This document shows positions 2,755 to 63,469 of a stretch of 64,000 bases of DNA, piece after piece. Within the stretch, counting starts at the first letter, position 1; each line of letters begins with the position of its first letter. A program made the translations under genes and the position numbers. The stretch comes from an uncultured Chloroflexia bacterium (lineage in GTDB: Bacteria; Chloroflexota; Limnocylindria; Limnocylindrales; CSP1-4), in NCBI GenBank assembly GCA_963813705.1, contig CAWFAH010000010.1, positions 921,085 through 985,084 of the forward strand, in the 5' to 3' direction. The notes under the pieces are model-generated. The model worked only from the letters and a program-made list of their open reading frames with translations, was not told the origin of the DNA and ran no database searches.

Positions 2755-4893
2755 CTAGCTCGCCGCGACGGGCGCTGCCGACTCCGGCGCCGCCGCGACC
2801 GGCGCGGGTGTCGCGGCCGTGCGACCGAGCTCGATCCCGATCGACTCGAGCCAGCGCCGGATGTTGCGGTAGATCGCCGGCGCCCCGAGCGGGATCGGCT
2901 CGTCGAGCTCCCACTCGGTCGGGTGGAGGATGAACGGCTCGGTCTGCGGACCGCCGAGCCCGCCGTGCGATCCGATCAGCTCCTCGAACGCGGCCACCTC
3001 GCCCAGCTCGGGGTCGTACTGGCTGATGAGCAGCAGGTCCGGGGCGTGGGTCATCGCGTCCTCGCGCTTGAGGCTCATGATCGTGTGCGGCCCGAACAGG
3101 GCCGTCGGGTCGTCGCCGTCGACCCGGTCCTGGTCGAGGTAGCGCACGCCCTTCGGGCCGAGCACGACGGCCCCCTGGCTTGCCGTGCGGACCATCAGCA
3201 TCGCCACGCCCGGGTGCGCGGCCAGCGTCGTGACGAGGTTCGGGTGGAGCTCCTCGAGCTCCTCGGCCGTCAGCCGATGATCGTTCCCGGTGAACCAGAC
3301 GAGACCGAGGTTGCCCGACCCGACCACCACGATCGTCGACTCGTCGGCCGGCGGGGGGAGCTCCTCCTGGTCGAGATCGACGACGCCGTCGGTCGTCCGG
3401 CTGGCCAGCGCGGCCCGGGCGACGGTGGGGCCTACCCCGCGGCTCCGGGTGATCTCGGACAGGAACGAGTTGACGAACGTCGATCCCTCGGCCTGGGTCG
3501 TCGTCTGCACGACGGTTGCGCGTCCGCTCATCAGGTCGCGGACCACCTCGCCGAGGCTCTTCCCGTAGCGCTGCTTGAACGTGGCGCCGAGGCTCTGGCC
3601 GTGGTCCGACAGGACGATGAACCGGTACGGGCGGGGAGCATCCTCGGCCGCCTTGGCGAGGACCGCGATCGCCGCGTCGACGCCGTCGAGCGCCTCGAAC
3701 GACTCGACCCGCTCGGGTCCGCAGTGGTGGGCCAGCTCGTCGTAGTCGGTGAAGTCGCAGTAGATGACGTTCGTGCCGCGGTACATCTCGTCGATGACGA
3801 GCGACGTGTTGACGTCGCGCAGGAAGACGTTGCTCGCGGCGCGCATCCCCGCGTACTTCATCCCCCGGTGCATCTGCGGCTGGATGCCGGCCCGCCGGGT
3901 GCGCCGCGCCTGGACGAGCTCCTTGATGAACTCGCCGAGGAACAGGGTGAACGAGCGGAGGTAGCCGGTCGGGCTGAAGAAGAAGCCCATGAACGCCTTG
4001 CTGTCGCCGATCCCCTGCGATTCGTCCTTGATCGCCGCCGTGGTGAGGTAGGAGCGCGTCGCATCGCCGGTCATCAGGTTGCAGATGCTGGCGCCGTTGT
4101 TCGACAGGAGGCCCTCGCCGTTCGACAGGCGCCGGACGATCTCGCCCGCGTCGACCGGGTTGCTCGAGACCATCAGGTGCTGACGATCGCGCTCGTACCA
4201 GCGGAAGGCGGGGATCCCGTCGTTCGTCCCGTGGAGGATGCCGGCCTGGGAGGCCGAGGTCATCGACGGCAGGATCGCCTCCCAGCGCGACAGGGTATGG
4301 CTCTTATCGCGGACCCAGCCGGCCATCGTGTTGACCGAGCCGGCCCGGATCCGACCGGCCAGGATCGGGTAGGCGAGACCGTCGATCTGGAGGATGACGA
4401 CGCCCGGCTTGTCGCTCTTCGGGCCGGCTCGCTGGACGAGCAGGCTCTGGACGAGCAGCCCGTAGAACGACCCGCCGCGGTCGACCCCGAGGATGGAGGT
4501 GAGGATCGTGTTCACGATCGCGTACACGAACGACCCGACGAGCGCGGTCAGGAACGCGTCGACGTGGACGCCGGGCGACCACTGGGCGACCACGAGGAAG
4601 GCGACCACCTGGAGGACGAGGACGAGGACGCCGGTCAGGATGAGCGAACGGGCGGCCACGAACGCCAGCAGGACGGTCCGCACGACCGCGTTGAACAGCG
4701 CCATCAGGATCACGGCGAGGACGGCGGCCCACAGCGAATCGAGGGTGATCCTCGGGAGCAGCCACGCCGTGATGACGAACGAGACCGTCGCGACGAGCAG
4801 GGTGAGGATCAGTCGTCGGACGAGCGCCCACGGGCCGCCGCGCCACTCCCAGAGGACCCGCAGCTGGGTCCGGTACAGATCGAGCAGGCCCAT
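2755..4893 (-). CDS. Membrane-anchored alkaline phosphatase / nucleotide pyrophosphatase-phosphodiesterase (type I phosphodiesterase) family protein with N-terminal holin-like 4-TM domain
   Basis: N-terminal 140 aa forms 4 TM helices. Catalytic domain motifs VVILQIDGLAY, PSMTSASQAGILHG (PTKTFPNH-like) and SDHGQ match the NPP/AlkP superfamily. Confidence 0.85.
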   Translation of the reverse strand: MGLLDLYRTQLRVLWEWRGGPWALVRRLILTLLVATVSFVITAWLLPRITLDSLWAAVLAVILMALFNAVVRTVLLAFVAARSLILTGVLVLVLQVVAFLVVAQWSPGVHVDAFLTALVGSFVYAIVNTILTSILGVDRGGSFYGLLVQSLLVQRAGPKSDKPGVVILQIDGLAYPILAGRIRAGSVNTMAGWVRDKSHTLSRWEAILPSMTSASQAGILHGTNDGIPAFRWYERDRQHLMVSSNPVDAGEIVRRLSNGEGLLSNNGASICNLMTGDATRSYLTTAAIKDESQGIGDSKAFMGFFFSPTGYLRSFTLFLGEFIKELVQARRTRRAGIQPQMHRGMKYAGMRAASNVFLRDVNTSLVIDEMYRGTNVIYCDFTDYDELAHHCGPERVESFEALDGVDAAIAVLAKAAEDAPRPYRFIVLSDHGQSLGATFKQRYGKSLGEVVRDLMSGRATVVQTTTQAEGSTFVNSFLSEITRSRGVGPTVARAALASRTTDGVVDLDQEELPPPADESTIVVVGSGNLGLVWFTGNDHRLTAEELEELHPNLVTTLAAHPGVAMLMVRTASQGAVVLGPKGVRYLDQDRVDGDDPTALFGPHTIMSLKREDAMTHAPDLLLISQYDPELGEVAAFEELIGSHGGLGGPQTEPFILHPTEWELDEPIPLGAPAIYRNIRRWLESIGIELGRTAATPAPVAAAPESAAPVAAS

Positions 4894-21286: not shown

Positions 21287-22445
21287 CTAGACGCGACCCT
21301 TTGGAACGGTGTGCCAGTAGGTCTTGTTGAAGACGATCTTGCCGAGGTGCCACAGCCGGTTCGGCTTCGGTGGCTTCGGCGGGTGGTCGTAGTCGAACTG
21401 CAGCAAGGTGCCCTTGCCGTCGCCGATCTCGAAGAAGCACATCACCTTGCCCTGGTAGTCGACGTGCTTGCCGGCCGGCTCGCGACCCTCGACCGCCGCC
21501 GCGATCCGCTCGGCGACGACGGGCGCCTCGAAGTGGGCCGTCGACCCGGCCTTCGAGAGCGGCAGGTCGGTTGCATCGCCGAGGGCGAAGATGTCCTCGT
21601 GACCGCCGACCTGGAGCGTGTTCCGGTCGGTCGGCAGCCAGCCGCCGGGCGCCGGGGCGAGACCCGAGTCGATGAGGTACTGCTGGCCCTTGTGCGGCGG
21701 GACGAGGATGAGCAGGTCGTAGGGCAGCTCCTCGCCCTCCAGGCTGAGGACGACCTTCCGCTCCGGGTCGATCGCCTCGACGTTGAAGAACGTGTGGAGC
21801 TCGATCCCCTTCTGCTCCAGGATCGGGGTGGCCATCTCGCTGACCGATTCGATCGTGAACGCGCGCCCGATCGGCGAGCAGAAGTGGAGCTCGCTCTTCG
21901 AGCGCAGGCCGCGCTCGCGGAGCTCGGCCTCGATGAGGAAGGCGACCTCGAGCGGCGCGGGCGGGCACTTGTACGGCATTCCGGCGATGCCGATGACGAT
22001 CCGTCCGCCCGTGAACGCGTCGAGGGCGGTCGCGCAGCCTGGCGGCGGCCGCCGCGGTGTAGAAGTGCTGCGCCTCGGTGTCGAAGTGCTCGATCGACTC
22101 GGGCACGATCCGCGACCCCGTGGCGAGGACGAGCTGGTCGTAGAGCAGCTGCAGGCCGTCGGTCAGCGTGACGATCCGCGACGTCGGGTCGACCGTGGCG
22201 ATCTCGCCCACGATGAGCTGGACGCGCCGGTCGAGCAGCGAGCGCTCGGGTCGCTTGAGGTTCGCGGCGCGCTCGCCGCCCATGGCGATGTACATGAACC
22301 CGGGCTGGTAGACGTGGCTGCCGGTCTGGTCGACGACGGTCAGCTCGACCTCTCCGCGATCGATCCGCTCGCGGAGCTTCTTGACCAGGAGGTTGGCGGT
22401 CAGCGTGCCACCAACCCCGCCGCCGAGGATCAGGATCCGGTCCAT
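21287..22445 (-). pseudogene. sqr: Sulfide:quinone oxidoreductase / NAD(P)/FAD-dependent oxidoreductase (SQR-like), interrupted by a single-base frameshift near 22024-22028
   Basis: N-terminal part MDRILILGGGVGGTLTANLL...HFYTAAAAARLRD is in one frame. C-terminal part ALDAFTGGRIVIGIAGMPYKCPPAPLE...TYWHTVPKGRV is in the -1 frame. An extra G/C in a GGG/CCC run (+ strand cgagGGcggtc) explains the shift. Confidence 0.8.
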
Positions 22446-22449
22446 CGAG

Positions 22450-22713
22450 CTACCGCACCTTCTCGACGATGATCGCGTCGTACCCGTCACGGGTCTCGAC
22501 GGAGATCAGCCGGTGGCCGGCCTTCTCGATCCACTTGGGGATGTCGATCCGGCTGCCCTTGTCGGACGAGCGCACCTCGAGCACGTCGCCGACCTGGCCT
22601 TCGCGGATCGCCCGGATGAGCTCCATCAGCGGGCCCGGGCAGAAGCTGCCCCGGGCGTCGATGGTCCGGGTGATCGTGGGGATCTCGAGCGTGTCGGTCA
22701 TCGCGGGTTCCAT
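22450..22713 (-). CDS. tusA: Sulfurtransferase TusA family protein
   Basis: 87 aa with CPxP motif (DARGSFCPGPLMEL). Lies 4 nt upstream of the SQR start. Confidence 0.8.
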   Translation of the reverse strand: MEPAMTDTLEIPTITRTIDARGSFCPGPLMELIRAIREGQVGDVLEVRSSDKGSRIDIPKWIEKAGHRLISVETRDGYDAIIVEKVR

Positions 22714-22754
22714 GCCTTTCGGTCTGGGTCGGACGCGCAGGCCCGACGGTTCGT

Positions 22755-23312
22755 TCAGATGAACAGCGGAGCCGAGCCCTCGGTCATCAGGCCGATGACC
22801 GTGGCCGCGCCGACCGGCTCGGCCATGCCGTCGATCATGTCCTCGGGCTTGAGCCCGAACATGTCCATGGTCATCTGGCAGGGGATGAACTCGACGCCCA
22901 TGAGCTGGGCGGCCTCGAGCAGCTCCTTCGGGCTGGCGACGTGGTACTGCTTCGCCAGGCGGCCCATCATCCAGGGGCCCATCCCGAGGAAGTTCATCTT
23001 CGACAGCTTGCGATGGCTCATGCCGGGTCGCTGCATGGCCGACAGCATCTTCTGCATCCAGTTGTCGCCGGTGATCCGGCGCTCGTCCTTGACGAAGGCC
23101 TGGAGGCCCCAGAACGTCACGAAGACGCGGGTCTTGACGCCCATCGCCGCCGACGTGGAGGCGAGGATCGTCATCGCCCAGACCTTCTCGAGATCACCGC
23201 TGTAGTCGATGATCAGGACGTCGCGCAGCTTGGACTCCGGTTCCTGGACGACCTGCGGGACCGGCTCGGGGATCGGCGTCTCGCGAACGGGCGCCTCCGC
23301 GATCATGGTCAT
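22755..23312 (-). CDS. DsrE/DsrF/DsrH-like family protein (DsrE2-type)
   Basis: 185 aa. Conserved DsrE-like blocks (VWAMTILASTSAAMGVKTRVFVTFWGLQAF...GVEFIPCQMTMDMFG) including the cysteine. Confidence 0.8.
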   Translation of the reverse strand: MTMIAEAPVRETPIPEPVPQVVQEPESKLRDVLIIDYSGDLEKVWAMTILASTSAAMGVKTRVFVTFWGLQAFVKDERRITGDNWMQKMLSAMQRPGMSHRKLSKMNFLGMGPWMMGRLAKQYHVASPKELLEAAQLMGVEFIPCQMTMDMFGLKPEDMIDGMAEPVGAATVIGLMTEGSAPLFI

Positions 23313-23328
23313 GGTGCGTTCCTTTCGC

Positions 23329-23577
23329 TCAGCGGACGCGGATGACGAAGCGGTAGACCGCCCCGTCGGAAGTGGACTCGAGGAGCTCGTTGGCGGTCGT
23401 CTTCGACCAGGCGGCGAAGTCCTTGATCGAACCCGGGTCGGTCGCCAGAACCTCGAGGGCCTGGCCGGAGGCCATGGTCTTCACGGCCTGGGCCGTCTTG
23501 ACGATCGGCAGCGGGCAGGACAGCCCGCGCGCGTCGACGGTCTGGGCGATCTCGACGATCGGTGTCATGGTCGGCAA
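23329..23577 (-). CDS. tusA: Sulfurtransferase TusA family protein (second copy)
   Basis: 82 aa, DARGLSCPLPIVKT CPxP motif. Confidence 0.85.
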   Translation of the reverse strand: MPTMTPIVEIAQTVDARGLSCPLPIVKTAQAVKTMASGQALEVLATDPGSIKDFAAWSKTTANELLESTSDGAVYRFVIRVR

Positions 23578-23608
23578 CTCCCTTCGGTGGTGACCGCGGC
23601 TCCGGCGG

Positions 23609-24022
23609 TCAAATGAACACGACCTGGCCCTCGCCGGCGTTCAGGTAGAAGGCCGTCACGCCTTCGACCCCGTCGACGAGCGGATCGAGATCCGTCTGCT
23701 CGAGCCCGAGCAGGTCCATGGACAGCGAGCACGCCTCGATGTCGATCGAGCCGAGCTCCTTGGCCATCCGCAGCGTGTCGGCCCAGCTGGCCTGGCCGGC
23801 CGTCCGGAGCGCGTCGACCTGACGGCGACCCTCGTCGCCGGCCTCGGGGGCGAGCCCGTGGTCGCGGCCGATGCGGTCCGCCCGGAAGGCGTCGAGCGCC
23901 CAGTACTGGAGGAAGACGTTGACCGGCTTGCCGAGCGCGGCGGCGCCGGCGGCAAGGACGGAGGCGGCCTGGAGCCGATCGTCGGTGCCGGAGAAGAGGA
24001 CCAGGTTCAGGGGCTCGTCCAT
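23609..24022 (-). CDS. DsrE/DsrF-like family protein (DsrE3-type)
   Basis: 137 aa, LNLVLFSGTDDRLQAASVLAAGAAALGKPVNVFLQYWAL...IEACSLSMDLLGL. DsrE fold motifs with the active-site Cys. Confidence 0.75.
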   Translation of the reverse strand: MDEPLNLVLFSGTDDRLQAASVLAAGAAALGKPVNVFLQYWALDAFRADRIGRDHGLAPEAGDEGRRQVDALRTAGQASWADTLRMAKELGSIDIEACSLSMDLLGLEQTDLDPLVDGVEGVTAFYLNAGEGQVVFI

Positions 24023-24035
24023 GGTTCAGGTGACC

Positions 24036-24449
24036 TCAGCTGACGATTGAGATGGCAGGGTGCTTGCGGACACGGGCCGGTTGGCCGGAACCCGATCGTC
24101 GGGCGCCCGCCGCGGGGCCTGAGGACGGCGTTGCCGGCGCGTCGTCGGGCAGCCCGGCGAGCCGGCGGATGCGCCGCTCGAGGACGCCGCGCATGATCGA
24201 GCAGGCGACCATGACGTCGGGGTCGGCCAGGCGGTAGCGGACCTCACGTCCGTCGCGCTCCGCCTCGACCACGCCCGCGCTGCGGAGCAGCGCCAGGTGC
24301 TGGGAGGCGTTGGGCTGGGTCATCCCGAGCTCGTCGGCCAGCCGGCCGACCTCGCACGGCCCGTCGGCCAGCCGGTGCAGGATCTCGAGCCGGCGCGGGC
24401 TGGCGAGCGTCTTGAGCACTTCGGCCTGGAGCGAGTTGATGTCGTCCAT
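24036..24449 (-). CDS. ArsR/SmtB family transcriptional regulator; candidate persulfide-responsive SqrR/BigR-like repressor
   Basis: HTH LKTLASPRRLEILHRLADGPCEVGRLADELGMTQPNASQHLALLRSAGVV with two Cys (GPCEV, VACSIM) placed like the SqrR/BigR sensing cysteines. First gene of the sulfur cluster. Confidence 0.9.
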   Translation of the reverse strand: MDDINSLQAEVLKTLASPRRLEILHRLADGPCEVGRLADELGMTQPNASQHLALLRSAGVVEAERDGREVRYRLADPDVMVACSIMRGVLERRIRRLAGLPDDAPATPSSGPAAGARRSGSGQPARVRKHPAISIVS

Positions 24450-24606
24450 GGCCCGAGCATCGACCTATGCGCAGATGCTGATGAGTGCCGCCCGGCCCGG
24501 GCCGGGGGGCCGCCGGTCATCCGTGCGGCAGGCCGGTCGGCCGGCGCGGTTCGGCCGTGGCCACGGCCTCGTTCGTGGCCGTCGGCCACTCTCCGTCACC
24601 ACCTAG

Positions 24607-31104: not shown

Positions 31105-31842
31105 TCAGTCCGCCTCCCCGACCTCGTAGGTCTGGAGCCGCCGGACCGCGATCAGCAGCGCGAGCGCGGCGACCGCGACTGCGAGGATGACCGCCGAGCT
31201 GCCGGGCAGCAGGTCACCGGCCGCCGCCCGCTGGCCGCCGGCGATCGCGTCGGCGATGCCGAGCGCGTACTGGCGGATGCTGAACGTTCGCGTCCCTTCG
31301 AACAGCCCGGCCAGGATCCCCTCCCAGACGAGGACGTAGATCAGCCCGATCGCGAGCGCCCGCGAGGTCACCAGGCTGAGGGCCAGGAAGACGACCACGT
31401 ACAGGATGGCGGCGACCGACGCGCCGACGGCGTAGCCGACCGCGGCCGCCGGCCCGGTTCCGGTCAGCCCGTGGATGATCGCAGTCGCCAGGAGCGCCGA
31501 CGGCGCCGCGATGGCCACCGCGAGCCCGGCCGCCACGATCACCTTGGCGACCACGATCTGCCAGCGCGGGATGGGCTTGGCGAGCAGGTAGATGGCGGTC
31601 CCGTCGTCGAGCTCCGAGCCGAGCGCCGACGTCCCGAACACCAGGGCGACGAGCGGCACGATCGTCGAGATGACGAGCCGATCGACGACCGCCGCGGTCG
31701 TCCCGTCGAGGTTCGTGACCCGCCCGGACGCGCGGACGAGGAGGGCGACGAGAACCGGCAACAGCCCGAGCAGGCCGACGAGGATCACCCGGCGGCGGCC
31801 GGCGAGCGAGCGCACGGTCAGCCCGGCGATGACCCGGATCAC
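31105..31842 (-). CDS. ABC-2 type transporter permease
   Basis: GTG start overlapping the upstream ATPase stop (GTGA). 6 TM. Typical ABC-2 exporter permease profile. Confidence 0.8.
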   Translation of the reverse strand: MIRVIAGLTVRSLAGRRRVILVGLLGLLPVLVALLVRASGRVTNLDGTTAAVVDRLVISTIVPLVALVFGTSALGSELDDGTAIYLLAKPIPRWQIVVAKVIVAAGLAVAIAAPSALLATAIIHGLTGTGPAAAVGYAVGASVAAILYVVVFLALSLVTSRALAIGLIYVLVWEGILAGLFEGTRTFSIRQYALGIADAIAGGQRAAAGDLLPGSSAVILAVAVAALALLIAVRRLQTYEVGEAD

Positions 31843-32831
31843 CGCCGCACCAGGTAGCCGAAGACGCTCTCGAGGTCCTCGTCGGTCGGGCGGACCTCGC
31901 GGAGCGTCAGCCCGGCGTCGCGGGCGATGACCGCCAGGGCCCGGGTGAACGCCGCGTAGTCCGAGGTCCGGACCGCGAGCCGGCCGTCGGTCAGCTCGAC
32001 CCCGTACACGGCGGGATGCCCGACGAGGCCCGCCGCCAGCCGGCGGTCGTCCGACGAGTGGATCGTGAACGTGTGCGGCCGATCGGTCATCAGGCGGCGG
32101 ATCTCGCGGAAGTCCCCGGACGCGGCCAGCCGTCCGGCGACGATCACGAGCACGTTCTGGGCGAGCCGCTCGACCTCCTCGAGGATGTGCGAGCTGAACA
32201 GAATGGTCCGTCCCTCGCTCGCCATCCGCCGGAGGAGCTCCATCATGTGCAGCCGCTGGCGCGGGTCCATCCCGTTGAACGGCTCGTCGAGGAGCAGGAC
32301 CGGCGGCTCGTGGACGAGGGCACCGGCGATCTTCGCCCGCTGGCGCATCCCCTTCGAGTACGTCCCGATCGGGCGGTCGGCGGCGTCGGTCAGCTCGACC
32401 GTGGCGATCGCCCGGGCCGCCGCTCCGTCCGGGTCGGGCATCGCCTGCAGCCGGGCGTTGAGCCGGGCGAACTCGCGGCCGGTCAGGAACGGGTAGACCG
32501 CCTCGCGCTCGGGCACGAGACCGATCCGCCGGTAGACGTCCGGGTCCCGCCAGGCCGGCTGCCCGTCGATCACCACCCGCCCGGCCGACGGCCGGAGGAG
32601 GCCCGAGATCATGTGGAGCAGGGTCGACTTCCCCGCCCCGTTCGGTCCGAGCAGCCCGGTGACCCCGGGGCGCAGGGTGAACGAGATGTCGTTGACGGCG
32701 ACGACGTTGCCGTACCAGCGCGACACGTCCTGGAGCTCGACGGTCGCCGTCGGGTCGAGCGGGCGGGGCGGACGCAGGACGGCGCCCGAACCGGCGGCCG
32801 GTCCCCACAGCGGAGCGCGCTCGTCGGTCAC
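31839..32831 (-). CDS. ABC transporter ATP-binding protein
   Basis: Walker A GPNGAGKST. Signature YSKGMRQRAKIA. Walker B LLLDEPFNGMD. Start (GTG at 32831) uncertain. Confidence 0.85.
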   Translation of the reverse strand: MTDERAPLWGPAAGSGAVLRPPRPLDPTATVELQDVSRWYGNVVAVNDISFTLRPGVTGLLGPNGAGKSTLLHMISGLLRPSAGRVVIDGQPAWRDPDVYRRIGLVPEREAVYPFLTGREFARLNARLQAMPDPDGAAARAIATVELTDAADRPIGTYSKGMRQRAKIAGALVHEPPVLLLDEPFNGMDPRQRLHMMELLRRMASEGRTILFSSHILEEVERLAQNVLVIVAGRLAASGDFREIRRLMTDRPHTFTIHSSDDRRLAAGLVGHPAVYGVELTDGRLAVRTSDYAAFTRALAVIARDAGLTLREVRPTDEDLESVFGYLVRR

Positions 32832-33715
32832 GCCTGGATCCGCAGATAGCGCCAGACGAGGGCCAGGCTCGCCCCGATCCCGAGCGCGACCGCCCCGAGC
32901 GTCAGCGCCTCGACCGGCACCCCGGAGTTGGCCGTCGCCTGGCCGTTCGGCGCGACGCCGAAGAACCACGCGTTCGTCCCGTCGAGGAGCGACCCGACGT
33001 CGAGCAGGATGATCCACTGGGCGGCGCCGCCGACATCGAGGCCGATCACGATCGCGGCCACGATCCCCGGGATGATGAACACGCCGAAGATCGCCGCGGT
33101 GGCGTACGCCCGGCGCGGGGTGATCGAGGCGATGAGCAGCGCCAGCGACGCCGTCACGACGGCGATCACGAGGGACGAGCCGAGGATGGCCGGCAGCGCC
33201 CCGACCTCCTTCCCGAGCGCCGCGCCGATGTCCGGGTCGAGGAGGATCGCCCCCACGCCCAGGACCGCCTGCGGCACCAGGACGATCGTCAGGACGCCGA
33301 TGCTCAGAGCCGTCAGCTTGGCGGCCACGTAGTCGGTCCGCCGGAGCGCTCGCGAGAAGTACAGGGTCAGGACGCGGTAGCGCTGATCACGACCGAGCAG
33401 CTCGGGCGCCTGGGCGGCCACGAACAGGACCGGGAAGGCGGCGATGAGGCTGAACATGCCGTCATGGCCCGGGATCACCGGCAGCTCGCCGACGCCACTC
33501 CGTGACGCCAGGGCACGGACCCCGACGAGGACGAGGGCGATGAGCGCGGGCAGACCGACGCAGATCAGCGGCAGGACCTTCGCCCGGCCGCTCCGGCCGA
33601 TCCCGAAGACGCTCCGCGTCGAGTAGCGCGCCAGCGCCCCGACCGCGTGGCGACGGCCGAGGCGCGGGCCGTCGTAGCCGCGGTAGCCGAGGTCGTAGAT
33701 GCTGCCGGTCGTCAT
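32828..33715 (-). CDS. ABC-2 type transporter permease
   Basis: 295 aa, 6 TM. ATGA overlap with the upstream ATPase. Confidence 0.8.
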   Translation of the reverse strand: MTTGSIYDLGYRGYDGPRLGRRHAVGALARYSTRSVFGIGRSGRAKVLPLICVGLPALIALVLVGVRALASRSGVGELPVIPGHDGMFSLIAAFPVLFVAAQAPELLGRDQRYRVLTLYFSRALRRTDYVAAKLTALSIGVLTIVLVPQAVLGVGAILLDPDIGAALGKEVGALPAILGSSLVIAVVTASLALLIASITPRRAYATAAIFGVFIIPGIVAAIVIGLDVGGAAQWIILLDVGSLLDGTNAWFFGVAPNGQATANSGVPVEALTLGAVALGIGASLALVWRYLRIQA

Positions 33716-37194: not shown

Positions 37195-38409
37195 TCAGCC
37201 CGGGACCCGGGACCCGGGACGCGGGACATGAACGATGATACGCGTGCCCACCTGCGGCTCGCTCACGACCTCCAGGCGGCCACCGGTGGCCGTCGCCCGC
37301 GAGCCCACGTTGACGAGCCCACGATGCTCGTCCGAGCGCCCTGCCTCGGGGTCGAAGCCCGCCCCGTTGTCGGCGATCTCCAGGACGATCTCGTCCGCGT
37401 TGTCGGGCGGCACCGCCAGCGAGACGTGGACCCGGCTCGCGCCGGAGTGGCGGGCGACGTTGCTCAACGCCTCCTGGGCGATCTGGAGGAGCTGGATCGT
37501 GACCTCGGCGGGCAGCTCGGCGTTGAGCGACTCGTCGGCGGTCAGCTCGAGATCGATCACCGTGTTCAGCCGGAACTCGTCGGCGACCGCGGCCAGACCG
37601 CCGACCAGCCCCACCTCGGCGAGCCGTTCGGGTCGCAGCCCGAAGATGAAGTTGCGGATGTCGCGGATCGCGAGATGGATCCCGTCGATGCCGCGCTCGA
37701 TCCGGGCCCGGGCCTCCGGCGGGTCGGTGTCCATGAACTCCGGGACGTCCTCGAGCGACAGGCTGACGCCGTACAGGCTCTGGATGATCCCATCGTGGAG
37801 GTCCTGGCCGATCCGCTCGCGCTCCTCGACCACCGCCAGCCGCTGGATCTGGTCGTGGAGCCGGGCGTTCTCGATCGCGATGCCGGCGTGGCGGGCGAAG
37901 ATCTCGACGACCGCCTGGTCGGCCGCGCTGAACTCGGCGGCGCCGCGCTTGTTCGTGAGGTAGAGGTCGCCGAGGACGCGCCCGCGAACGTTGATCGGGA
38001 CCCCGAGGAACGAAACCATCGGCGGATGGTTGGGCGGGAACCCGTAGCTCCGCGGGTGACGGGCGATCTCCGGGATCCGGACCGCGACGCTCTCGTGGAT
38101 CAGCAGGCCCAGCAGCCCGTGGCCGCGCGGCAGCGGGCCGATCCGCTCGCGCGCCTCGCGCGACAGGCCGCTGGTCACGAACCGCTCGAGGACGCCGCGC
38201 GAATCGGCGATTCCGAGCGCCGCGTACTCCGCATCGACGAGCTCGCGAACCCGGTCCACGATGAGCTGGAGGACGCGCTCGAACGACAGGATGCCGGCGA
38301 TCCCGCGCGTGGCCACGTCGAGGGCGTCGGCGAGGTCGAGGAGCTCCTCGCGCGAGAGCCCGAGGGAGCGCAGCGGGTTGGCCGACGCGAGCTGATCCGG
38401 GTCTGGCAT
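37195..38409 (-). CDS. GAF domain-containing sensor histidine kinase (HisKA_3 + HATPase_c; DevS/DosS-like)
   Basis: N-terminal GAF domain. H-box ERERIGQDLHDGIIQSL. N/G boxes LQIAQEALSNVARHSGA...IADNGAGF. Sits directly upstream of the NarL-type RR. Confidence 0.9.
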   Translation of the reverse strand: MPDPDQLASANPLRSLGLSREELLDLADALDVATRGIAGILSFERVLQLIVDRVRELVDAEYAALGIADSRGVLERFVTSGLSREARERIGPLPRGHGLLGLLIHESVAVRIPEIARHPRSYGFPPNHPPMVSFLGVPINVRGRVLGDLYLTNKRGAAEFSAADQAVVEIFARHAGIAIENARLHDQIQRLAVVEERERIGQDLHDGIIQSLYGVSLSLEDVPEFMDTDPPEARARIERGIDGIHLAIRDIRNFIFGLRPERLAEVGLVGGLAAVADEFRLNTVIDLELTADESLNAELPAEVTIQLLQIAQEALSNVARHSGASRVHVSLAVPPDNADEIVLEIADNGAGFDPEAGRSDEHRGLVNVGSRATATGGRLEVVSEPQVGTRIIVHVPRPGSRVPG

Positions 38410-38515
38410 CGCCAGAGCCTAGCAGCCCGAACAGCCCGGTTCTGCCGTCCGGCCCGGGAGGGATGGGCCGGACGTCACTTCTGCCTGACGGCGCCGGCGG
38501 CGACACTGACCGACC

Positions 38516-39931
38516 ATGGGCAGCACGACCGTCCCCCAGCTCCCGCGCACCCTCGAACCCGCACCGACGGCCGCGTCCGAGCCCGCCTCGAGCGCGCTCG
38601 GCCCGGCGGACCAGCCAACCGATGGACCGATCCCGTCGGCCCTGTCGCGGCGCGGCTTCCTGCGCGGCGCGGCGATCGCCGGCGGCGGGCTGGTCGCTGC
38701 GACGCTCGCCGCCTGTGCGCCGGGCGGCGCGCCGAGCTGGACCTACGGCCCCGGCTCGAGCGCGGCCGCGGGCGCGGCGAGCCCCAGCTCCGCGGCGAGC
38801 CACCACGAGTCGCCCAGCGCGGCCGCGACCGCCGCGGCCTCGGCCGCCGCTTCGCCCTCCTCGTCGGCGACGAGCGGAGAGCCGATCCCGGCGGGCTGGA
38901 CCCAGCACGACCTCGATGCGCGGACGGTCATCCGGCGCTACGTCGGGGATCTCGCCCCGGCCTTCAAGGACATCTACGGCCCGGCCGTGTTCGCCAAGCT
39001 CGCCGAGATCCTCGGCGTCGCCGATGGCTACCCCGAGCTCCAGAAGAAGCCGGCCTTCGTCCAGGTCCCGAACCTCGTCCTGACCGACGCCCTCCAGCCG
39101 CTCATGCCGACGGTCGAGAACGGGGTCAAGGTGTTCAACCTGACGATCGACGAGATCAGCCAGCAGATCGACGAGATGAAGCCGCCGGTCGCAGCGCTCG
39201 GCTACAACAAGCAGTGGCCGGGCCCGACGATCCGGGTCAACCAGGGCGACAGGGTCAGGGCCGTCTTCACGAACAACCTCAAGGAGACGACGAGCGTCCA
39301 CTTCCACGGGGTCGAGCTCGACGACTTCTTCCAGGACGGCATCCCGTTCGTCACCCAGCTGCCGATCACTCCGGGCGAGACGTACACGTACGAGTTCACC
39401 GCCCGGACCGCCGGATCGCAGATGTACCACTCGCACCACAACGCGACCGACCAGGTCGGGCGCGGCCTGCTTGGGGCGTTCATCGTCGAGCCGAAGGACA
39501 ACCCGGTCACGTACGACCGGGAGTACGTCTGGATCTCGAACGACTCGCTCGGCGGGTTCACGATCAACGGCCACGGCTTCCCGGCGACGGTGCCGGTCCT
39601 CGCCGCGGTCGGCGAGACGGTCCTCGTCCGGTTCATGAACGAGGGGATCATGATGCACCCCTGGCACAGCCACGGGTACGCCATGAAGGTCATCGCCCGC
39701 GACGGCCATCCGCTCGGGTCGGCGGCGTTCTCCGCTGACACGCTCGGCGTGAACCCCGGCGAACGGTGGGACGCGACGCTCACCGTGGACCGGCCGGGGA
39801 TCTGGGCGTTCCACTGCCACATCCTCCCCCACGTCGAGGGCGCCAGCGGGATGTTCGGGATGGTCAACACCCTGATCGTCGTTCCCGAGAAGGCCCACGT
39901 CGACGCCATCGTCAAGGCCCTGGTCAGCTAG
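38516..39931 (+). CDS. Multicopper oxidase family protein with Tat signal peptide
   Basis: Tat motif SRRGFLRGAAIAGG. Four copper-site motifs (HFHG, HSHH, HPWHSHG, HCHILPH). Confidence 0.9.
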   Translation: MGSTTVPQLPRTLEPAPTAASEPASSALGPADQPTDGPIPSALSRRGFLRGAAIAGGGLVAATLAACAPGGAPSWTYGPGSSAAAGAASPSSAASHHESPSAAATAAASAAASPSSSATSGEPIPAGWTQHDLDARTVIRRYVGDLAPAFKDIYGPAVFAKLAEILGVADGYPELQKKPAFVQVPNLVLTDALQPLMPTVENGVKVFNLTIDEISQQIDEMKPPVAALGYNKQWPGPTIRVNQGDRVRAVFTNNLKETTSVHFHGVELDDFFQDGIPFVTQLPITPGETYTYEFTARTAGSQMYHSHHNATDQVGRGLLGAFIVEPKDNPVTYDREYVWISNDSLGGFTINGHGFPATVPVLAAVGETVLVRFMNEGIMMHPWHSHGYAMKVIARDGHPLGSAAFSADTLGVNPGERWDATLTVDRPGIWAFHCHILPHVEGASGMFGMVNTLIVVPEKAHVDAIVKALVS

Positions 39932-39982
39932 CGACCGAAGATGACGAACATGACGCCGCCGGGGGGAAACGCGGACGGGACG

Positions 39983-40429
39983 ATGGCCCGGTTCGGGAAG
40001 ATCCTCCTGGCCACCGACCTGACCTCGGCGTCGAGCTCGGCGACGGAGGAGGCCGTCGAGCTCGCGGTCCGGCTCGACGCGCGCCTCCTCGTGATGTCCG
40101 TCCTCGAGACCGGCAAGGGTGGCATGCCCCGGCGCGGCGTCCGGCCGGAGGTTCGCGATGCCCGCTCGCGGGAGATCCAGGCCGTCGTCGGCCAGGCACG
40201 CGCGGCGGGCGCCGATGCCAGCTTCCTCGTATGGGAAGGCGAGGCCGGAGAGGCAATCACCTCCGCGGCCGAGGCCGAGCAGGTCGACCTCATCGTCGTC
40301 GGCTCGCACGGACGGAGCACGGTCGGCCGCTTCCTGCTGGGCAGCGTGTCCGATCATGTCGTCCACCACGCCACGTGCCCGGTCCTCGTCGTCCGGGCCC
40401 CCGAGGACCTTCCGACCCCGATGGGCTGA
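39983..40429 (+). CDS. Universal stress protein (UspA family)
   Basis: [23 protein letters not shown]...[37 protein letters not shown] with the ATP-binding G-2X-G-9X-G(S/T) motif. An alternative ATG at 39941 is possible. Confidence 0.85.
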
Positions 40430-46589: not shown

Positions 46590-46731
46590 CATCGGGGCGC
46601 GGAGTCGCGGCGGTGCGGTCGCACGGTACCGACGGCTCGTCGGATGGCCCGAAGGTCGTAGGCGGGAATGGTCCACCCGCTGGCCCGTACGACCTATCGC
46701 CATGCGTTTGGATGGGGACTAGGCTCGTCCG

Positions 46732-47247
46732 GTGACCTCCGCAGCATCCCCCAAGCGTCGGATCGCGATCGGGTCGACGTTCACCCTCTACGCGGTGCTG
46801 GGCGTGACACCCGACGCCGACCCAGAGACGATCCGCAACGCCTACCGCGAGCTCGCCCGTCGCTACCACCCGGACGCCGGCGGCGACGCCCGCTACATGG
46901 CCGCGATCAACAAGGCCTGGGGCGAGCTGCGCGACCCGGAGCGGCGCGCGGCGTACGACCGCAAGATGCGGCTCGACCGCCCGGTGACGGTGTCGCCCGC
47001 CCCGCGACCCGAGGCCGCCAGCGCGGCGAGCACCGCCACACCCGCCGACGTCGCACCGCCGCCGGCCCCGGCGGCGCCGCGGGCGACGTCGAGCTCGGGG
47101 ACCATCCTCGACTTCGGACGCTACGAGGGCTGGACGATCGGGCAGCTCGCCAGCCGGGACCCGGAGTACCTGCTGTGGCTCGAGCGGACGCCGATCGGCC
47201 GCCCGCTGCGGGCCGAGATCGAGGCCGCGCTCACCGCTCGACGCTGA
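46732..47247 (+). CDS. J domain-containing protein (DnaJ-like co-chaperone domain protein)
   Basis: J-domain with HPD tripeptide (TLYAVLGVTPDADPETIRNAYRELARRYHPDAGGD). Pro/Ala-rich linker and C-terminal domain. Confidence 0.75.
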   Translation: MTSAASPKRRIAIGSTFTLYAVLGVTPDADPETIRNAYRELARRYHPDAGGDARYMAAINKAWGELRDPERRAAYDRKMRLDRPVTVSPAPRPEAASAASTATPADVAPPPAPAAPRATSSSGTILDFGRYEGWTIGQLASRDPEYLLWLERTPIGRPLRAEIEAALTARR

Positions 47248-47276
47248 CGGCGGGCTCGTCCGGGCCGCGTCGCGCG

Positions 47277-48856
47277 CTAGTCGACGATCGTCTGGCTCTG
47301 CTCGCGCATGAACTGCTGGACGTAGTAGAAGCCCGCCGCCGGCCTTGCCCGTCGCGGTGCTGCCCTTCCAGCCGCCGAACGGCTGGATGCCCGGCCAGGC
47401 GCCGGTCGTCGCGCCCGCGCGCCGGTTGACGTAGACCACGCCGGCCTCGATCTCGTCGAGGAACTTGTCGACCTCGTCCTTGTCCTCGGAGTAGAACCCG
47501 GCCGTGAGCCCGAGGTTCGTGTCGTTCGACAGCGCGAGCGCCTCGTCGATCGAGTCGACCGGGGCGACGGCAGTGAACGGGATGAACAGCTCGTCGCGGA
47601 ACAGCCGGTGGTCCTTCGGCAGGTCGAGCGCCACCGTCGGAGCGACGAAGAAGCCGGCGTCGAGCCCGTTCTCGGTCACCCGCTCGCCGCCGATCGCGAG
47701 TCGGCCGGCCGAGCGCGCCTCGGCGACGGCCTGCTCGTACCGCGCGACGGCCCTGGCGTTGATCACCGGGCCCAGCCAGTTGCGCCGGTCGGTCGGATCG
47801 CCGATCGTGATCGCCTCGGTCTTCTCGACCAGCCGGCGGACGAGCTCGTCGTGGACCGGCCGCTCGACGTAGACCCGGCTGTTCGCCGAGCACTTCTCGC
47901 CCGAGAACCCGAACGCCGAGCGCATGATCCCCTCGGCCGCCTCGTCGAGGTCGGCATGGCGCGACACGATCGCCGGGTTCTTGCCGCCCATCTCGACGAT
48001 CACCGGCTTCGGGTAGGTCCTGGCGAAGCTCTTGTAGAGCCCGAAGCCGACCTCGAACGAGCCGGTGAAGATGACGCCGTCGACGCCGGGGTTCGTCTGG
48101 ATCTCGTCGCCGACCGTCTCGCCCGCGCCCATGACCATGTTGAACACGCCCGTCGGGGACGCCCGCGTCGCGCATCGCCCGCAGGAGGCAGGCGCCCGAC
48201 AGCGGCGCGTCGGACGACGGCTTGTAGACGACCGTGTTGCCGGCCACGAGAGCCCCGCCGGCCGGCCCGCCCGACAGCGCGAACGGGAAGTTGAACGGGC
48301 TGATCACGCCCCACACCCCGTACGGCTTGAGGACCGATCGGGTGTGGACGGTCGCGTCGCCGAGGTTGCCCATCGGATCGTCGAAGCCGTGGTTGCGCTC
48401 CATCATGTCGCACGACCAGCGGATCAGGTCGGCGGTCTCCTCGACGTCGCCGAGCGCCTCGAGCCGGTTCTTGCCGACCTCCATGGACAGCAGGGCGCTG
48501 AACTCCATCTGGCGTTCGCTGATGACGTCGGCGACCCGGCGCAGGATCTCGACGCGCTCCTGCCACGGCCGGCGCCCCCAGGCCGGGAACGCCGCCCGGG
48601 CCGCGGCGATGGCGTCCTGGACGTCCTTGCGCGATCCCTTCGCGAACGTCCCCATGACCGAGCCGTCGATCGGGGAGCGCTTCTCGAAGGTGCCGTCGCC
48701 GTCGCGCTCGGCGCCGCCGACGAAGTTGCGATAGGACCCGCCGAGCATCGTCCGCGCCTTGGCGAGCCCCGCCTCGTACTGGGCGTGAAGCTCCTCGTTG
48801 TCGTTGCGCAGCGTGGCGTAGGTGATCTTCAGGCGGGGCTTCGCCTCGGTCGACAT
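47277..48856 (-). pseudogene. Aldehyde dehydrogenase family protein, L-glutamate gamma-semialdehyde (1-pyrroline-5-carboxylate) dehydrogenase-like (RocA/PruA type), carrying two single-base frameshifts (near 48149-48151 and 47332-47334)
   Basis: Three frames concatenate to a full ALDH: MSTEAKPRLKITYATL...KPSSDAPLSGACLLRAMRDAGVPDG | VFNMVMGAGETVGDEI...VEMGGKNPAIV...FGFSGEKCSANSR...GIQPFGGWKGSTATGKAGGG | FYYVQQFMREQSQTIVD*. Catalytic Cys and Glu are present. Both shifts are an extra G/C in GGG/CCC runs. Confidence 0.8.
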
Positions 48857-48931
48857 CGTGGTGCTCCTGGTTTCGTGATCCGCGGGCCGAGCGTGGTCCA
48901 GTGACCTTCCAGTGTAGCCGGAGCGACCGGC

Positions 48932-49807
48932 TCAGCCGAGCGCGGCGACCACCGCCCGAAGGTCCGCGGCGATGGCGTCGGGCCGCCCGCCGCGGGCCGC
49001 AGCCGCGGCAGCGACGTCGCCGAGTCCGTGCTTCCCGGTCAGCACCAGGACGGTCCGAATCCCGAGCCGCCGGGCGGCCTGGATGTCGGACCGAAGGTCG
49101 TCGCCGACCATCACCACGTCGTGCCGGACGAGCCGTCGTCCGCCCCCCGCGCGGACGGCCGCGTCCAGCTCGGCCGTCGCCTCGCGGAAGAACGCGGCGG
49201 AGGGCTTGCCGAGGATCCGGGCCGGCTGCTCGGTCGCGAACTCGAGGCCGGTCACGAGGGCGCCCGAGTCGAGGGTCGGGCCGGCCGGCGTCAGCCACCA
49301 CGGGTTGCGGTGCATCCCGATCAGCTCGGCGCCGCTGCGGACGAGCCGGAACGCGCGGTTGAGGTTGTCGAACGTGAACGCCTCCGGCGCGTCGCCGATG
49401 ACCACCGCCGCGGCGCGCGCGCCCGGCGCGTCGGCCTCCTCGGCGGTCAGCAGGCGCTGGCCGGCGAACTCGGTCAGCGCGTCGGTCGAGGCCATCACGA
49501 ACAGCCGCTCCCCGGGGTGGCGCTGGCGGGTGTAGGCCGCGCTGGCCGACAGCGCGCTCAGGATCCGGTCCGCCGCGATCGGGGCGCCGAGACGGTCGCC
49601 CCAGCGCGACAGGCTGGACCGGCTGACGAGCGAGGTGTTCGTGACGATGCGGTACGGGACGGCCCGGGCGTCGAGGGCGGCGAGGGCGGCACCCGCGCCG
49701 TCGATGAGCGCGCCCTTCAGGACGATCACGCCGTCGAGATCGAGCAGCAGCGCGCGGACGCCGGCGAGGGCGACCCGCAGCTCGGCCGGCGTGCTCGGGG
49801 AGGTCAT
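48932..49807 (-). CDS. HAD-IIA family hydrolase (NagD-like sugar phosphatase family)
   Basis: 291 aa from MTSPSTPAEL. Motif I LLLDLDGVI. Motif II IVTNTS. C-terminal VGDDLRSDI. Only 33 bp separate it from divergent fabI. Confidence 0.8.
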   Translation of the reverse strand: MTSPSTPAELRVALAGVRALLLDLDGVIVLKGALIDGAGAALAALDARAVPYRIVTNTSLVSRSSLSRWGDRLGAPIAADRILSALSASAAYTRQRHPGERLFVMASTDALTEFAGQRLLTAEEADAPGARAAAVVIGDAPEAFTFDNLNRAFRLVRSGAELIGMHRNPWWLTPAGPTLDSGALVTGLEFATEQPARILGKPSAAFFREATAELDAAVRAGGGRRLVRHDVVMVGDDLRSDIQAARRLGIRTVLVLTGKHGLGDVAAAAAARGGRPDAIAADLRAVVAALG

Positions 49808-51228: not shown

Positions 51229-52271
51229 GCGCGCGGGTCGGCATCGGTCTGGTCGGCGCCGGGCGGATGGGCTCGGTGCACGCCCGGCTCATCGCCGGCG
51301 GCATTGCCGGGGCGCGGCTCGCAGGGATCGCCGATGTCGATCGCGCGGCGGCGCGGCGGCTGGCGGCCGAGGTCGGCGACCCGCCCGCCTACGGCTCGCT
51401 CGATGAGCTCCTCGTGGCTCCCGGGATCGACGCCGTGCTGATCGCCATCTCCTCGCACCGCCACCTCGACGCGATCCGCGCTGCCGCGGCGGCCGGCAAG
51501 GACATCCTGTGCGAGAAGCCGATCGCGCTGACGATCGAGGACACCGATGCGGCCATCGCGGCGACGGACGCGGCCGGCATCCGGCTGCAGGTCGGGTTCA
51601 TGCGCCGCTGGGACCCCGACTACGCCCGGGCGAAGGAACGCCTGGCCTCGGGCCGCTACGGACGACCGACGCTGTTCACCTCGCTCCAGTTCGACCCGGC
51701 GCCGCCGCCGCTCGCGTTCGCCGATCCAGCCGTCAGCGGCGGGATCATGGTCGACATGGGGATCCACGAGTTCGACCTGGCCCGCTGGCTGATGGCGGAC
51801 GAGGTCGCCGAGGTCCACGCCTACGGCAGCGCGATCGCCAGCCCAGCGTTCGGGGCGATCGGCGATGCCGACACCGTGGCGGTCGCGCTGCGCTTCGCCG
51901 GCGGCGCGCTCGGCAGCGTGCTGCTCGCCCGGTCCACGACCTACGGGGAGGACGTCCGGACGGAGGTCCTCGCCACGAACGGCTCGGTCTGGATCGGCGG
52001 CATCCCGACGACGCCGGGCGCTTCGAGCGGTGGCCTCCCGCGCGCTGCGGGCGGGCCGTGGACCGGCGCGCTCGCGACCGATACCCTCGACCCGTCGATC
52101 CCGCGGTTCGAGCGTGGCTACGCCGATCAGACCCGCGGCTTCGTCGAGGCGATCGTCGCCGACCGTCCCGTCGCGGTGCCGGCGTGGGAGAGCCGAGCCG
52201 CGCTCCGGATCGCCGTGGCAGCCGATCGCTCGATGCACGAGGGTCGCCCGGTAGCGGTCGCCGTCGGGTGA
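51225..52271 (+). CDS. Gfo/Idh/MocA family oxidoreductase
   Basis: N-terminal Rossmann VGIGLVGAGRMGSVHA and EKP motif ILCEKPIALT. ATGA overlap with the upstream gene. Confidence 0.85.
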   Translation: MSARVGIGLVGAGRMGSVHARLIAGGIAGARLAGIADVDRAAARRLAAEVGDPPAYGSLDELLVAPGIDAVLIAISSHRHLDAIRAAAAAGKDILCEKPIALTIEDTDAAIAATDAAGIRLQVGFMRRWDPDYARAKERLASGRYGRPTLFTSLQFDPAPPPLAFADPAVSGGIMVDMGIHEFDLARWLMADEVAEVHAYGSAIASPAFGAIGDADTVAVALRFAGGALGSVLLARSTTYGEDVRTEVLATNGSVWIGGIPTTPGASSGGLPRAAGGPWTGALATDTLDPSIPRFERGYADQTRGFVEAIVADRPVAVPAWESRAALRIAVAADRSMHEGRPVAVAVG

Positions 52272-52345
52272 CCGGGCTGCAGCGCGGGCTTGTCCCGCTC
52301 GGCGCGGGTGCCTATCGTGCCGTCATAGGAAGGAAGGATCCCGCC

Positions 52346-63344: not shown

Positions 63345-63469
63345 CCCGCGGGCCGGCACCCCCGGCCCCGCCCGCAAGTTTCCTGCAACCCGGCATCCGC
63401 GACCGCGCGGACCGCTGCAACCGCCCGGCATCGATGCTCGGTGGGACCACGTGTCGCCACGGAGGCCGC

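Follow-up and report, generated by a model that had tools for sequence, protein, structure and literature searches.

A sulfide:quinone oxidoreductase and sulfur-carrier operon of Limnocylindria headed by an ArsR-family regulator with a conserved α5 cysteine

Why should a bacterium encode two TusA-type and two DsrE-type sulfur carriers in one row with a sulfide:quinone oxidoreductase (SQR), and what might the ArsR-family regulator at the head of this row respond to? The question is raised by a stretch of 64 kb from contig CAWFAH010000010.1 of an uncultured Chloroflexia bacterium (the whole stretch is called the window below), in which the genes lie on the minus strand at positions 21287-24449. 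Our analysis makes it fairly probable that the locus is an autoregulated operon for the oxidation of sulfide and the handling of sulfane sulfur on protein carriers. Confidence is highest for the function of the SQR and lower for the hand-off of sulfur to the carriers and for sensing by Cys83 of the regulator. An initial annotation of the sequence had suggested a sulfide detoxification or persulfide-signalling module. The outline of this suggestion, sulfide oxidation and trafficking of sulfane sulfur, is retained here, but the sensing cysteine pair of the SqrR/BigR type that belonged to it is not.

The six genes are tightly spaced, with gaps of 4-53 nucleotides (nt), and encode the ArsR-family regulator, a DsrE-family protein of 137 amino acids (aa), TusA-1, a DsrE-family protein of 185 aa, TusA-2 and the SQR (Table 1). 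The co-directional order with short gaps described in the initial annotation is found at these coordinates, and the operon-like organisation holds. Family assignments were made by Pfam and NCBIfam scans of the window proteins with curated cut-offs, and these scans support the earlier calls of an ArsR protein, two TusA proteins, two DsrE-family proteins and an SQR. Related loci were sampled with the 185-aa DsrE protein as the query and one genome per GTDB species, which yielded 447 loci. Counts of synteny, orthologues and flanking genes refer to the best 80 of these 447 species loci, and gene order in them was read by tblastn of the window proteins. All six genes were found in identical order in 57 of the 80 loci. 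A five-gene core without arsR was present in 16 loci, and in two of these the contig breaks off at its 5′ end; the remaining loci of the 80 are truncated contigs or variants. The recurrence of the gene order in 57 of 80 species loci is far beyond chance. Moreover, all expected active-site cysteines of the carriers and of the SQR are invariant across the aligned orthologues.

Table 1. Positions of the operon genes, the candidate operator and the hemerythrin genes in the window
Feature	Position	Strand	Details
ArsR/SmtB repressor, 137 aa	24036-24449	-	first operon gene; PF01022 E=2.9e-14; NF033788 91.9 bits, cut-off 55
DsrE2B-like carrier, 137 aa	23609-24022	-	active-site Cys98, ACSLSMD; PF13686, 55.1 bits
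TusA-1	23329-23568	-	79 aa; motif CPLP, Cys21; PF01206, 81.4 bits
DsrE2-family carrier, 185 aa	22755-23312	-	active-site Cys145, PCQMTMD; PF13686, 138.5 bits, full length
TusA-2	22450-22701	-	83 aa; motif CPGP, Cys25; PF01206, 73.8 bits
SQR, 5′ part	22033-22445	-	residues 1-~138; FAD-binding motif GGGVGG
Extra base	22032	-	GCGCGA in place of GCGGA; shifts the SQR reading frame
SQR, 3′ part	21287-22031	-	Cys160 (KCPPAP), Cys336 (VMCFFE), Phe337, conserved C-terminal amphipathic segment
Candidate ArsR operator	24467-24482		copy of ATGCGCA-N2-TGCGCAT (7-2-7 palindrome) with 2 mismatches
Hemerythrin-like (HHE) protein, 159 aa	24878-25357	-	PF01814 E=1.9e-15
Second hemerythrin (HHE)	63434-63940	+	PF01814 E=2.8e-16

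The initial annotation had placed the cluster in a high-GC Gram-positive background. The G+C content of the window DNA is indeed ~72%, but the relatives of the locus are metagenome-assembled genomes (MAGs) of Chloroflexota or Candidatus Limnocylindria. Almost all of the best 80 loci are labelled Candidatus Limnocylindrales/Limnocylindria, Chloroflexota or 'uncultured Chloroflexia', and the closest relative found in the scan with the 185-aa DsrE protein shows 98% protein identity to the window. Because these labels are so uniform, the host is placed in a soil lineage of Chloroflexota; judged by its relatives, it is a soil MAG of Candidatus Limnocylindria. An actinobacterial host is ruled out by the same identity of the relatives. 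Limnocylindria (Ellin6529) are abundant, uncultured Chloroflexota of soil and freshwater, and their sulfur metabolism is barely described; searches of the literature turned up no account of such a cluster from either Limnocylindria or Ellin6529. The operon is a standard feature of soil Limnocylindria and resembles known sulfide-detoxification operons. It can therefore hardly be called unusual, as had been proposed, since the cluster is the norm in Limnocylindria and has precedents in Methylacidiphilum (PMC10205796) as well as in Bacillus and Staphylococcus (PMC9918477). An SQR and carrier operon that is strictly conserved throughout the class suggests that sulfide oxidation or detoxification is routine in Limnocylindria.

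The start codon of the SQR lies 4 nt past the stop codon of TusA-2. The N-terminus of the protein reads ILILGGGVGG, which includes the motif for binding of flavin adenine dinucleotide (FAD), and matches PF07992 (E=7e-17). The best curated match is NF049943, 'type III SQR, selenoprotein subtype', with 342 bits (E=3.8e-102) over residues 3-383, a score below the model threshold of 525, a value chosen for the selenocysteine subtype. Much lower scores of 61-120 bits were obtained for solved SQRs of types I, II and V. Because of the match to NF049943, the SQR is likely of type III, the least studied SQR type. The best match among solved structures is human SQOR (E=1.8e-33, residues 4-357). Cys160 in the motif KCPPAP stands opposite KCAGAP of the human protein, and Cys336 stands opposite the human C-terminal catalytic cysteine. 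Both cysteines are invariant in 67 of 67 orthologues, and Phe337 follows Cys336 directly in the invariant segment GKVMCFFE. By their numbering, Cys160/Cys336 match the canonical cysteine pair of type III, Cys159/Cys339 (PMC13047784), and Phe337 corresponds to the quinone-site Phe337 of the type III SQR of Caldivirga (PMC9666304).

An SQR-like flavoprotein ending at position 21287 had been reported in the initial annotation. The family is correct, but the gene is not a single intact open reading frame (ORF), as the window sequence is broken into two frames at position 22032. A metagenome contig assembled from short reads that is 99% identical (L001, SRR28023504) has CTGCG-GACC where the window has CTGCGCGACC, and encodes an uninterrupted protein. 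The extra base is also missing from a related MAG with 93% identity (L012), and the SQR is intact in these two loci and in nearly all others. Both halves of the window gene have a G+C content at third codon positions (GC3) of ~0.96 and show full-length similarity, and no further lesion was observed. In the survey, single genes split into two frames occurred in 9 of the 46 long-read MFD loci vs none of the 34 other loci (Fisher p=0.0086), and in the MFD MAGs the splits fall in different genes in different MAGs. The split-gene loci are L003, L014, L016, L022, L037, L054, L062, L077 and L081. Because the relatives lack the base and the splits are confined to long-read MFD MAGs, the extra base is probably a consensus error and not the mark of a pseudogene. 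If the shift were real, the SQR would be a pseudogene in this strain, and the operon would be decaying or repurposed without sulfide oxidation. The window sequence as given, with its extra base and two reading frames, is what such a reading can draw on. It seems improbable to us in view of the two relatives that lack the base, the unimpaired composition and similarity of both halves, and the scatter of splits over genes of long-read MAGs, which is the signature of consensus errors. More generally, frameshifts in MFD assemblies should be suspected before any pseudogene call is made.

The sulfur carriers between the regulator and the SQR belong to two families. Both TusA-type proteins carry the CPxP motif noted before and score far above the gathering cut-off of PF01206 (28.6 bits). 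The start of TusA-1 was set to the ATG at 23568, which follows a ribosome-binding site GAAGGGAG, whereas the mechanical ORF begins at a TTG at 23577; the protein is called as 79 aa on L002. For TusA-2, the start is probably the second ATG at 22701 and not the mechanical start at 22713, and the protein is called as 83 aa on L001. Cys21 of TusA-1 is present in 57 of 57 and Cys25 of TusA-2 in 56 of 56 orthologues. With 51.4 bits (TusA-1) and 37.5 bits (TusA-2), both remain below the cut-off of 78 of NF001423, the equivalog model of E. coli TusA, and by these scores both are carriers of the TusA family and not TusA orthologues. A second cysteine of TusA-1 (alignment column 58) is found in 37 of 57 orthologues; the window protein has Ser58 at this position.

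That the two DsrE-like proteins are different, as stated in the initial annotation, is borne out: both are members of PF13686 (gathering cut-off 25 bits) and they are 25% identical. The active-site cysteine is conserved in all aligned orthologues of each (Cys98, 62/62; Cys145, 68/68). The 137-aa protein had been labelled DsrE3, and this label did not survive comparison with solved structures. The protein matches PDB entry 2QS7 (5.2e-18), and 3MC3 gave no match at E<=1. These entries are DsrE2B of Saccharolobus solfataricus and DsrE3A, respectively (PMC11094781; PMC4175335). Cys98 aligns with the 2QS7 motif ACSTTME. DsrE3A is defined by a Cys-X7-Cys motif, the first cysteine of which is the active site (PMC4175335). 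In the 137-aa protein Cys98 is the sole cysteine and a glycine stands 8 positions on; the 185-aa protein also has one cysteine, so that Cys-X7-Cys occurs in neither. Genes for lipoamide dehydrogenase, LbpA or sHdr were found neither in the window nor beside the operon in the flanks of the 80 loci. The better match to 2QS7 than to 3MC3, the missing motif and the missing linkage to these genes rule out DsrE3. The 185-aa protein, for which the database holds 5580 homologues, matches 2QS7 (8.2e-16), 3PNX (8e-14) and 3MC3 (4.6e-6), and it contains a highly conserved insert, RPGxSHRKLSKMNFLGMGPWMMG, that is common to 3PNX. Against the DsrE2 equivalog model NF047629, the 185-aa and 137-aa proteins score 68.9 and 25.6 bits, below the cut-off of 210. 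Both are best described, from these matches, as DsrE2B-like members of PF13686 and not as equivalogs of the DsrE2 linked to Dsr or Hdr. The paralogues are only distantly related, with 25% identity between the two DsrE proteins and 35% between the two TusA proteins, which rules out a recent tandem duplication of a DsrE-TusA pair. Because identity is so low, the doubling of the carriers must be old, and each copy is constrained separately.

These assignments are consistent with the following mechanism. A membrane-associated type III-like SQR, with FAD and the cysteine pair Cys160/Cys336, would oxidise H2S and pass the electrons to the quinone pool. Zero-valent sulfur on the SQR cysteines would be handed on as persulfide to the conserved cysteines of all four carriers, two of the TusA and two of the DsrE2 type, which would keep the sulfur protein-bound and deliver it to sinks encoded elsewhere, for oxidation or for biosynthesis. 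The direction of sulfur flow from the SQR to the carriers, like the inducer and the role of Cys83 considered below, is what we infer. Conversely, the operon might exist mainly for its carriers, with the SQR as no more than one supplier. The relay would then provide an unlinked oxidation system of the cytoplasm, such as an Hdr-like complex, or the thiolation of cofactors and tRNA, with sulfane sulfur or thiosulfonate, and the purpose would be trafficking or assimilation, not detoxification. TusA/DsrE relays are indeed best documented in feeding rDsr/sHdr and in the thiolation of the molybdenum cofactor (Moco) and tRNA (PMC11094781, PMC4175335), neither a persulfide dioxygenase (PDO) nor a rhodanese lies beside the SQR, and a paralogous ArsR-DsrE2-DsrE-TusA operon, described below, is continuous with FlpD/HdrA-like genes (L040, L083). 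On the other hand, no partner of the carriers is linked as tightly as the SQR, which lies directly behind TusA-2 and is kept in 73 of the 80 loci, and the SQR operon has no linked genes for Hdr, Dsr, Moco or thiolation. Additionally, the closest described operon is induced by H2S and has been assigned to detoxification and energy (PMC10205796). We therefore regard a purely carrier-centred operon as unlikely and prefer an operon in which the carriers serve sulfide oxidation. Four carriers without a dioxygenase or rhodanese would make the locus a clean system for tracing the acceptor of the sulfane sulfur of a bacterial SQR.

The regulator heads the DsrE-TusA-DsrE-TusA-SQR operon in 57 of the 80 loci. 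In the AlphaFold2 model it has the arrangement α1-α2-α3-α4-β1-β2-α5, with α5 formed by residues 77-98. The model puts His25 in α2 and Cys32 in the loop between α2 and α3, and Cys83 belongs to the second helical turn of α5. The C-terminal tail is disordered and lacks conservation. Inside this tail, at window position 24089, the gene differs in length by 1 nt from that of L012. A length of 137 aa is common to independent database entries with 96-98% identity, and because of this recurrence the version of the window is probably the correct one.

Two cysteines positioned like the sensing pair of SqrR and BigR had been ascribed to the protein, and an alignment with these proteins had been suggested as a check. 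When the regulator and its orthologues were aligned with the PDB sequences of BigR, SqrR and HlyU, the pair was not found, an outcome that the initial annotation itself had named as refuting. The α2 sensing cysteine (SqrR C41, BigR C42, HlyU C38) aligns with His25, and the α5 sensing cysteine (SqrR C107, BigR C108, HlyU C101) aligns with a Glu/Gln at position 91, which is Glu91 in the window. Cys83 is located in α5 as well, 8 residues before position 91. Among 47 syntenic orthologues, His25 and Cys83 are both conserved in 47 of 47, and Cys32 occurs in 13. Close homologues retain Cys83 and His25 without exception (121/121 each). Cys32 is found in 118 of the 120 closest database homologues (>=79% identity) and thus appears to be fixed in the sub-clade of the window protein. 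For a broader set, homologues were clustered at 50% and the 150 best representatives were taken, which reach down to ~40% identity. In this set, ~116 sequences extend over the column of Cys83 and 98 of them have the cysteine; Cys32 occurs in 13, whereas the SqrR-type positions are essentially never cysteine (position 25 in 2 sequences, position 91 in none). Consistent with this, the BigR model NF040642 gives 59.8 bits against a cut-off of 155, with an alignment that ends at profile position 78 of 95. Alignment and conservation together rule out sensing of the SqrR/BigR type. Sensing of arsenic or metals was likewise rejected, as neither the α5 site D-x-H...H-x-x-H nor the α4 cysteines of CmtR are present, and of the CXC motif only one cysteine is left, which is not conserved.

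A candidate operator was found 17 nt upstream of the arsR start codon. In the orthologous loci, a conserved block lies just upstream of arsR, with the palindrome ATGCGCA-N2-TGCGCAT as its core. Near-exact copies, in which no more than one of two set positions is substituted, were found in at least 22 species loci, and within these 12-kb loci nowhere but at this position upstream of arsR. In loci without arsR the palindrome is gone, and the flanking elements GGCACT...GATGCT remain. This co-occurrence of palindrome and arsR is what would be expected of a repressor and its putative operator. The copy in the window is the only match in the 64 kb, where 2.45 are expected by chance, so that by itself it is not significant. 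Consensus scans found no sigma-70 promoter and no intrinsic terminator around the operon, which is uninformative at this G+C content. On inspection, the idea that the conserved GGCAC element is sigma-54-like was discarded, as the spacing is off by one. In the proposed mechanism, ArsR would bind the 7-2-7 palindrome, which would overlap its own promoter, and repress the operon. Release would follow once Cys83 is modified by sulfane sulfur or by another thiol oxidant; Cys83 is probably near its symmetry mate at the dimer interface.

Relatives of the regulator in other contexts bear on the nature of the signal. Located 2 kb downstream of the SQR operon in one locus (L040:10071-12073) is a second cluster, ArsR-DsrE2-like-DsrE (PF02635)-TusA-FlpD/MvhD, whose ArsR is 54% identical to that of the window. 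On an unassigned metagenome contig (L083:210-4441), the ArsR protein P0258 heads the same kind of cluster, which continues into an HdrA-like flavo-FeS gene. The gene after P0271 is DsrE2-like, and the gene after P0262 encodes a DsrE protein. Thus, all four sampled members at 52-54% identity head DsrE-type operons. More distant members with the α5 cysteine adjoin thioredoxin- or glutaredoxin-like genes and a hemerythrin-like gene, and one lies beside a CPxC membrane protein that adjoins a hemerythrin-fused P-type ATPase. The pattern suggests that ArsR proteins with a single α5 cysteine may be a class of thiol-based sensors distinct from SqrR/BigR.

It is conceivable, though doubtful at present, that these proteins form a large uncharacterised ArsR subfamily, marked by the single invariant Cys83 and by His25, that senses sulfane sulfur by a novel mechanism. 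One possibility is a Cys83-Sn-Cys83′ bridge that joins the two protomers at the α5/α5′ dimer interface; alternatively, the regulator might be trans-persulfidated directly by the TusA/DsrE carriers that it controls. If this were true, sensing of reactive sulfur would have arisen on the ArsR scaffold a second time and independently, and DsrE/TusA operons of at least two kinds would be under the control of the subfamily, one linked to SQR and one to Hdr-like genes. The regulator is in this respect the more general lead, as it heads sulfur-carrier operons yet cannot use the α2/α5 dithiol.

Alternatively, the regulator might sense another signal, such as oxygen or redox state, peroxide or a metal, or have no inducer, like Rv0081, and Cys83 might be structural. 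The absence of the SqrR/BigR cysteine pair fits this idea, and so do the neighbours of the distant α5-Cys members, which are thioredoxin- or glutaredoxin-like, hemerythrin and hemerythrin-fused P-type ATPase genes and not carriers. Moreover, the best PDB match is Rv0081 of M. tuberculosis (6JMI, 2.9e-15, residues 4-103), which belongs to a largely uncharacterised, hypoxia-linked ArsR cluster (PMC10054925). This alternative is difficult to reconcile with the conservation of Cys83 in the syntenic, close and broad sets of homologues, with the DsrE-type operons headed by all four relatives at 52-54% identity, and with the lack of metal-site residues. A signal unrelated to sulfur is, in our view, possible but not the likely case.

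Several observations count against an autoregulated operon for sulfide oxidation, and they are collected here. In the window sequence itself, the reading frame of the SQR is broken. Genes for a rhodanese, a PDO, TauE or sulfite oxidation were found neither in the operon nor elsewhere in the 64-kb window, and none of them is recurrent in the flanks of the 80 loci. To our knowledge, sensing by a single cysteine is without precedent in the ArsR family. The characterised ArsR persulfide sensors all use an α2/α5 dithiol that forms an intraprotomer polysulfide bridge (PMC10054925), and this pair is absent here. The nearest solved relative of the regulator, Rv0081, is tied to hypoxia and not to sulfur (PMC10054925). 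Finally, the DsrE2B protein of Metallosphaera, the only one tested biochemically, showed no reaction with any sulfur compound offered to it and no interaction with TusA (PMC4175335).

A hemerythrin gene flanks the cluster, as had been noted before. It lies 428 nt upstream of the operon on the same strand (Table 1). A homologue is present in 23 of the 80 loci, in two of them at least 2 kb from the operon, and its arrangement varies between upstream on the same strand, upstream and divergent, and downstream of the SQR. When the flanking genes were clustered, the only recurrent ones besides hemerythrin were a class III aminotransferase and some hyp genes. The link between hemerythrin and the operon is weakened because the window contains a second hemerythrin gene, 39 kb away, and the family is common in the genome. 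Hemerythrin may have a functional link to the operon, in sensing of oxygen or redox state or in sulfur oxidation, or it may just be an abundant family. In several species, putative hydrogenase maturation genes are located upstream of the sulfur operon at a distance of a few kb; sequences resembling HypC, HypD, HypF and HypE were recognised by inspection, without a family scan, at L078:2167-2496, L079:1952-3133, L063:1-2103 and L039:3478-4767.

Other parts of the window contain further features. At 37195-40429, genes for a histidine kinase with a GAF domain, a multicopper oxidase and a universal stress protein stand side by side; they have no relation to the sulfur operon. The gene at 2755-4893 (minus strand) encodes a protein of 712 aa with an unusual fusion of an N-terminal phage-holin-like domain with four transmembrane segments (PF04020) and a type I phosphodiesterase (PF01663). 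Two ORFs in an ABC-transporter region, 31839-33017 and 32828-33715 (minus strand), overlap by ~190 nt, and two stretches of more than 2 kb each, 46590-49027 and 51229-53436, have no gene that passes the GC3 filter. These overlapping ORFs and gene-free stretches could be further frameshifts or atypical genes.

Among known systems, the nearest described one is the operon MFUM_v2_0219-0221 of Methylacidiphilum fumariolicum SolV, which consists of a type III SQR, TusA and DsrE2 and is up-regulated in sulfide-adapted cells (PMC10205796). By its description, it shares with the window the same three families in one operon, an SQR of type III and an assigned role in the oxidation and detoxification of H2S. 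It differs in having one TusA and one DsrE2 with the SQR as the first gene, whereas the window has two of each with the SQR last; no ArsR protein was reported, and the host is a verrucomicrobial methanotroph. Firmicute clusters, cstR-tauE-cstA-cstB-sqr of S. aureus and yrkD-yrkE-yrkF-yrkH-yrkI-yrkJ...sqr-pdo of B. licheniformis, have been shown to protect against sulfide and sulfane sulfur (PMC9918477). They are similar in combining a thiol-based repressor at the head with DsrE-type and TusA-type carriers and an SQR. However, their repressor (CstR/YrkD) is of the CsoR family, their SQR is of type II, and they include a rhodanese, a PDO and TauE, the three of which are missing from the window.

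With regard to the regulator, the proteins SqrR, BigR, HlyU, sHdrR and SoxR (cluster 4 of a sequence similarity network, PMC10054925) share the ArsR winged-helix fold, the neighbourhood of sulfide-oxidation or sulfurtransferase genes and a likely autoregulation via a dyad operator. They carry the α2/α5 cysteine pair, in place of which the window protein has His25 and Glu/Gln91, with the other α5 cysteine, Cys83, conserved. Rv0081 (6JMI) is the closest solved ArsR relative and also lacks a metal site, but it has a leucine at the position of Cys83, and its target is an operon of formate hydrogenlyase type that belongs to the hypoxia regulon. With regard to the carriers, DsrE3A-DsrE2B-TusA of Metallosphaera cuprina (PMC4175335) and the sHdr-associated DsrE3/TusA clusters (PMC11094781) likewise have two DsrE paralogues beside TusA, with a single active-site cysteine per DsrE. 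In contrast to the window, they are linked to Hdr-like/LbpA genes and not to an SQR, and their DsrE3A has the Cys-X7-Cys motif and carries thiosulfonate. The DsrE4 group, with Mcup_1724 as the prototype, was set up by position next to an SQR in Metallosphaera (Liu et al., PMC4175335). The likeness to the window is one of genomic position alone, namely the adjacency to an SQR, and the gene order is opposite.

Compared with these precedents, the operon of the window stands apart by the presence of two non-redundant carrier pairs, the lack of PDO, rhodanese and TauE, the type III-like SQR, and an ArsR repressor without the known dithiol. The operon is real but largely ordinary: it is not unusual in principle, and in its own lineage it is the rule.

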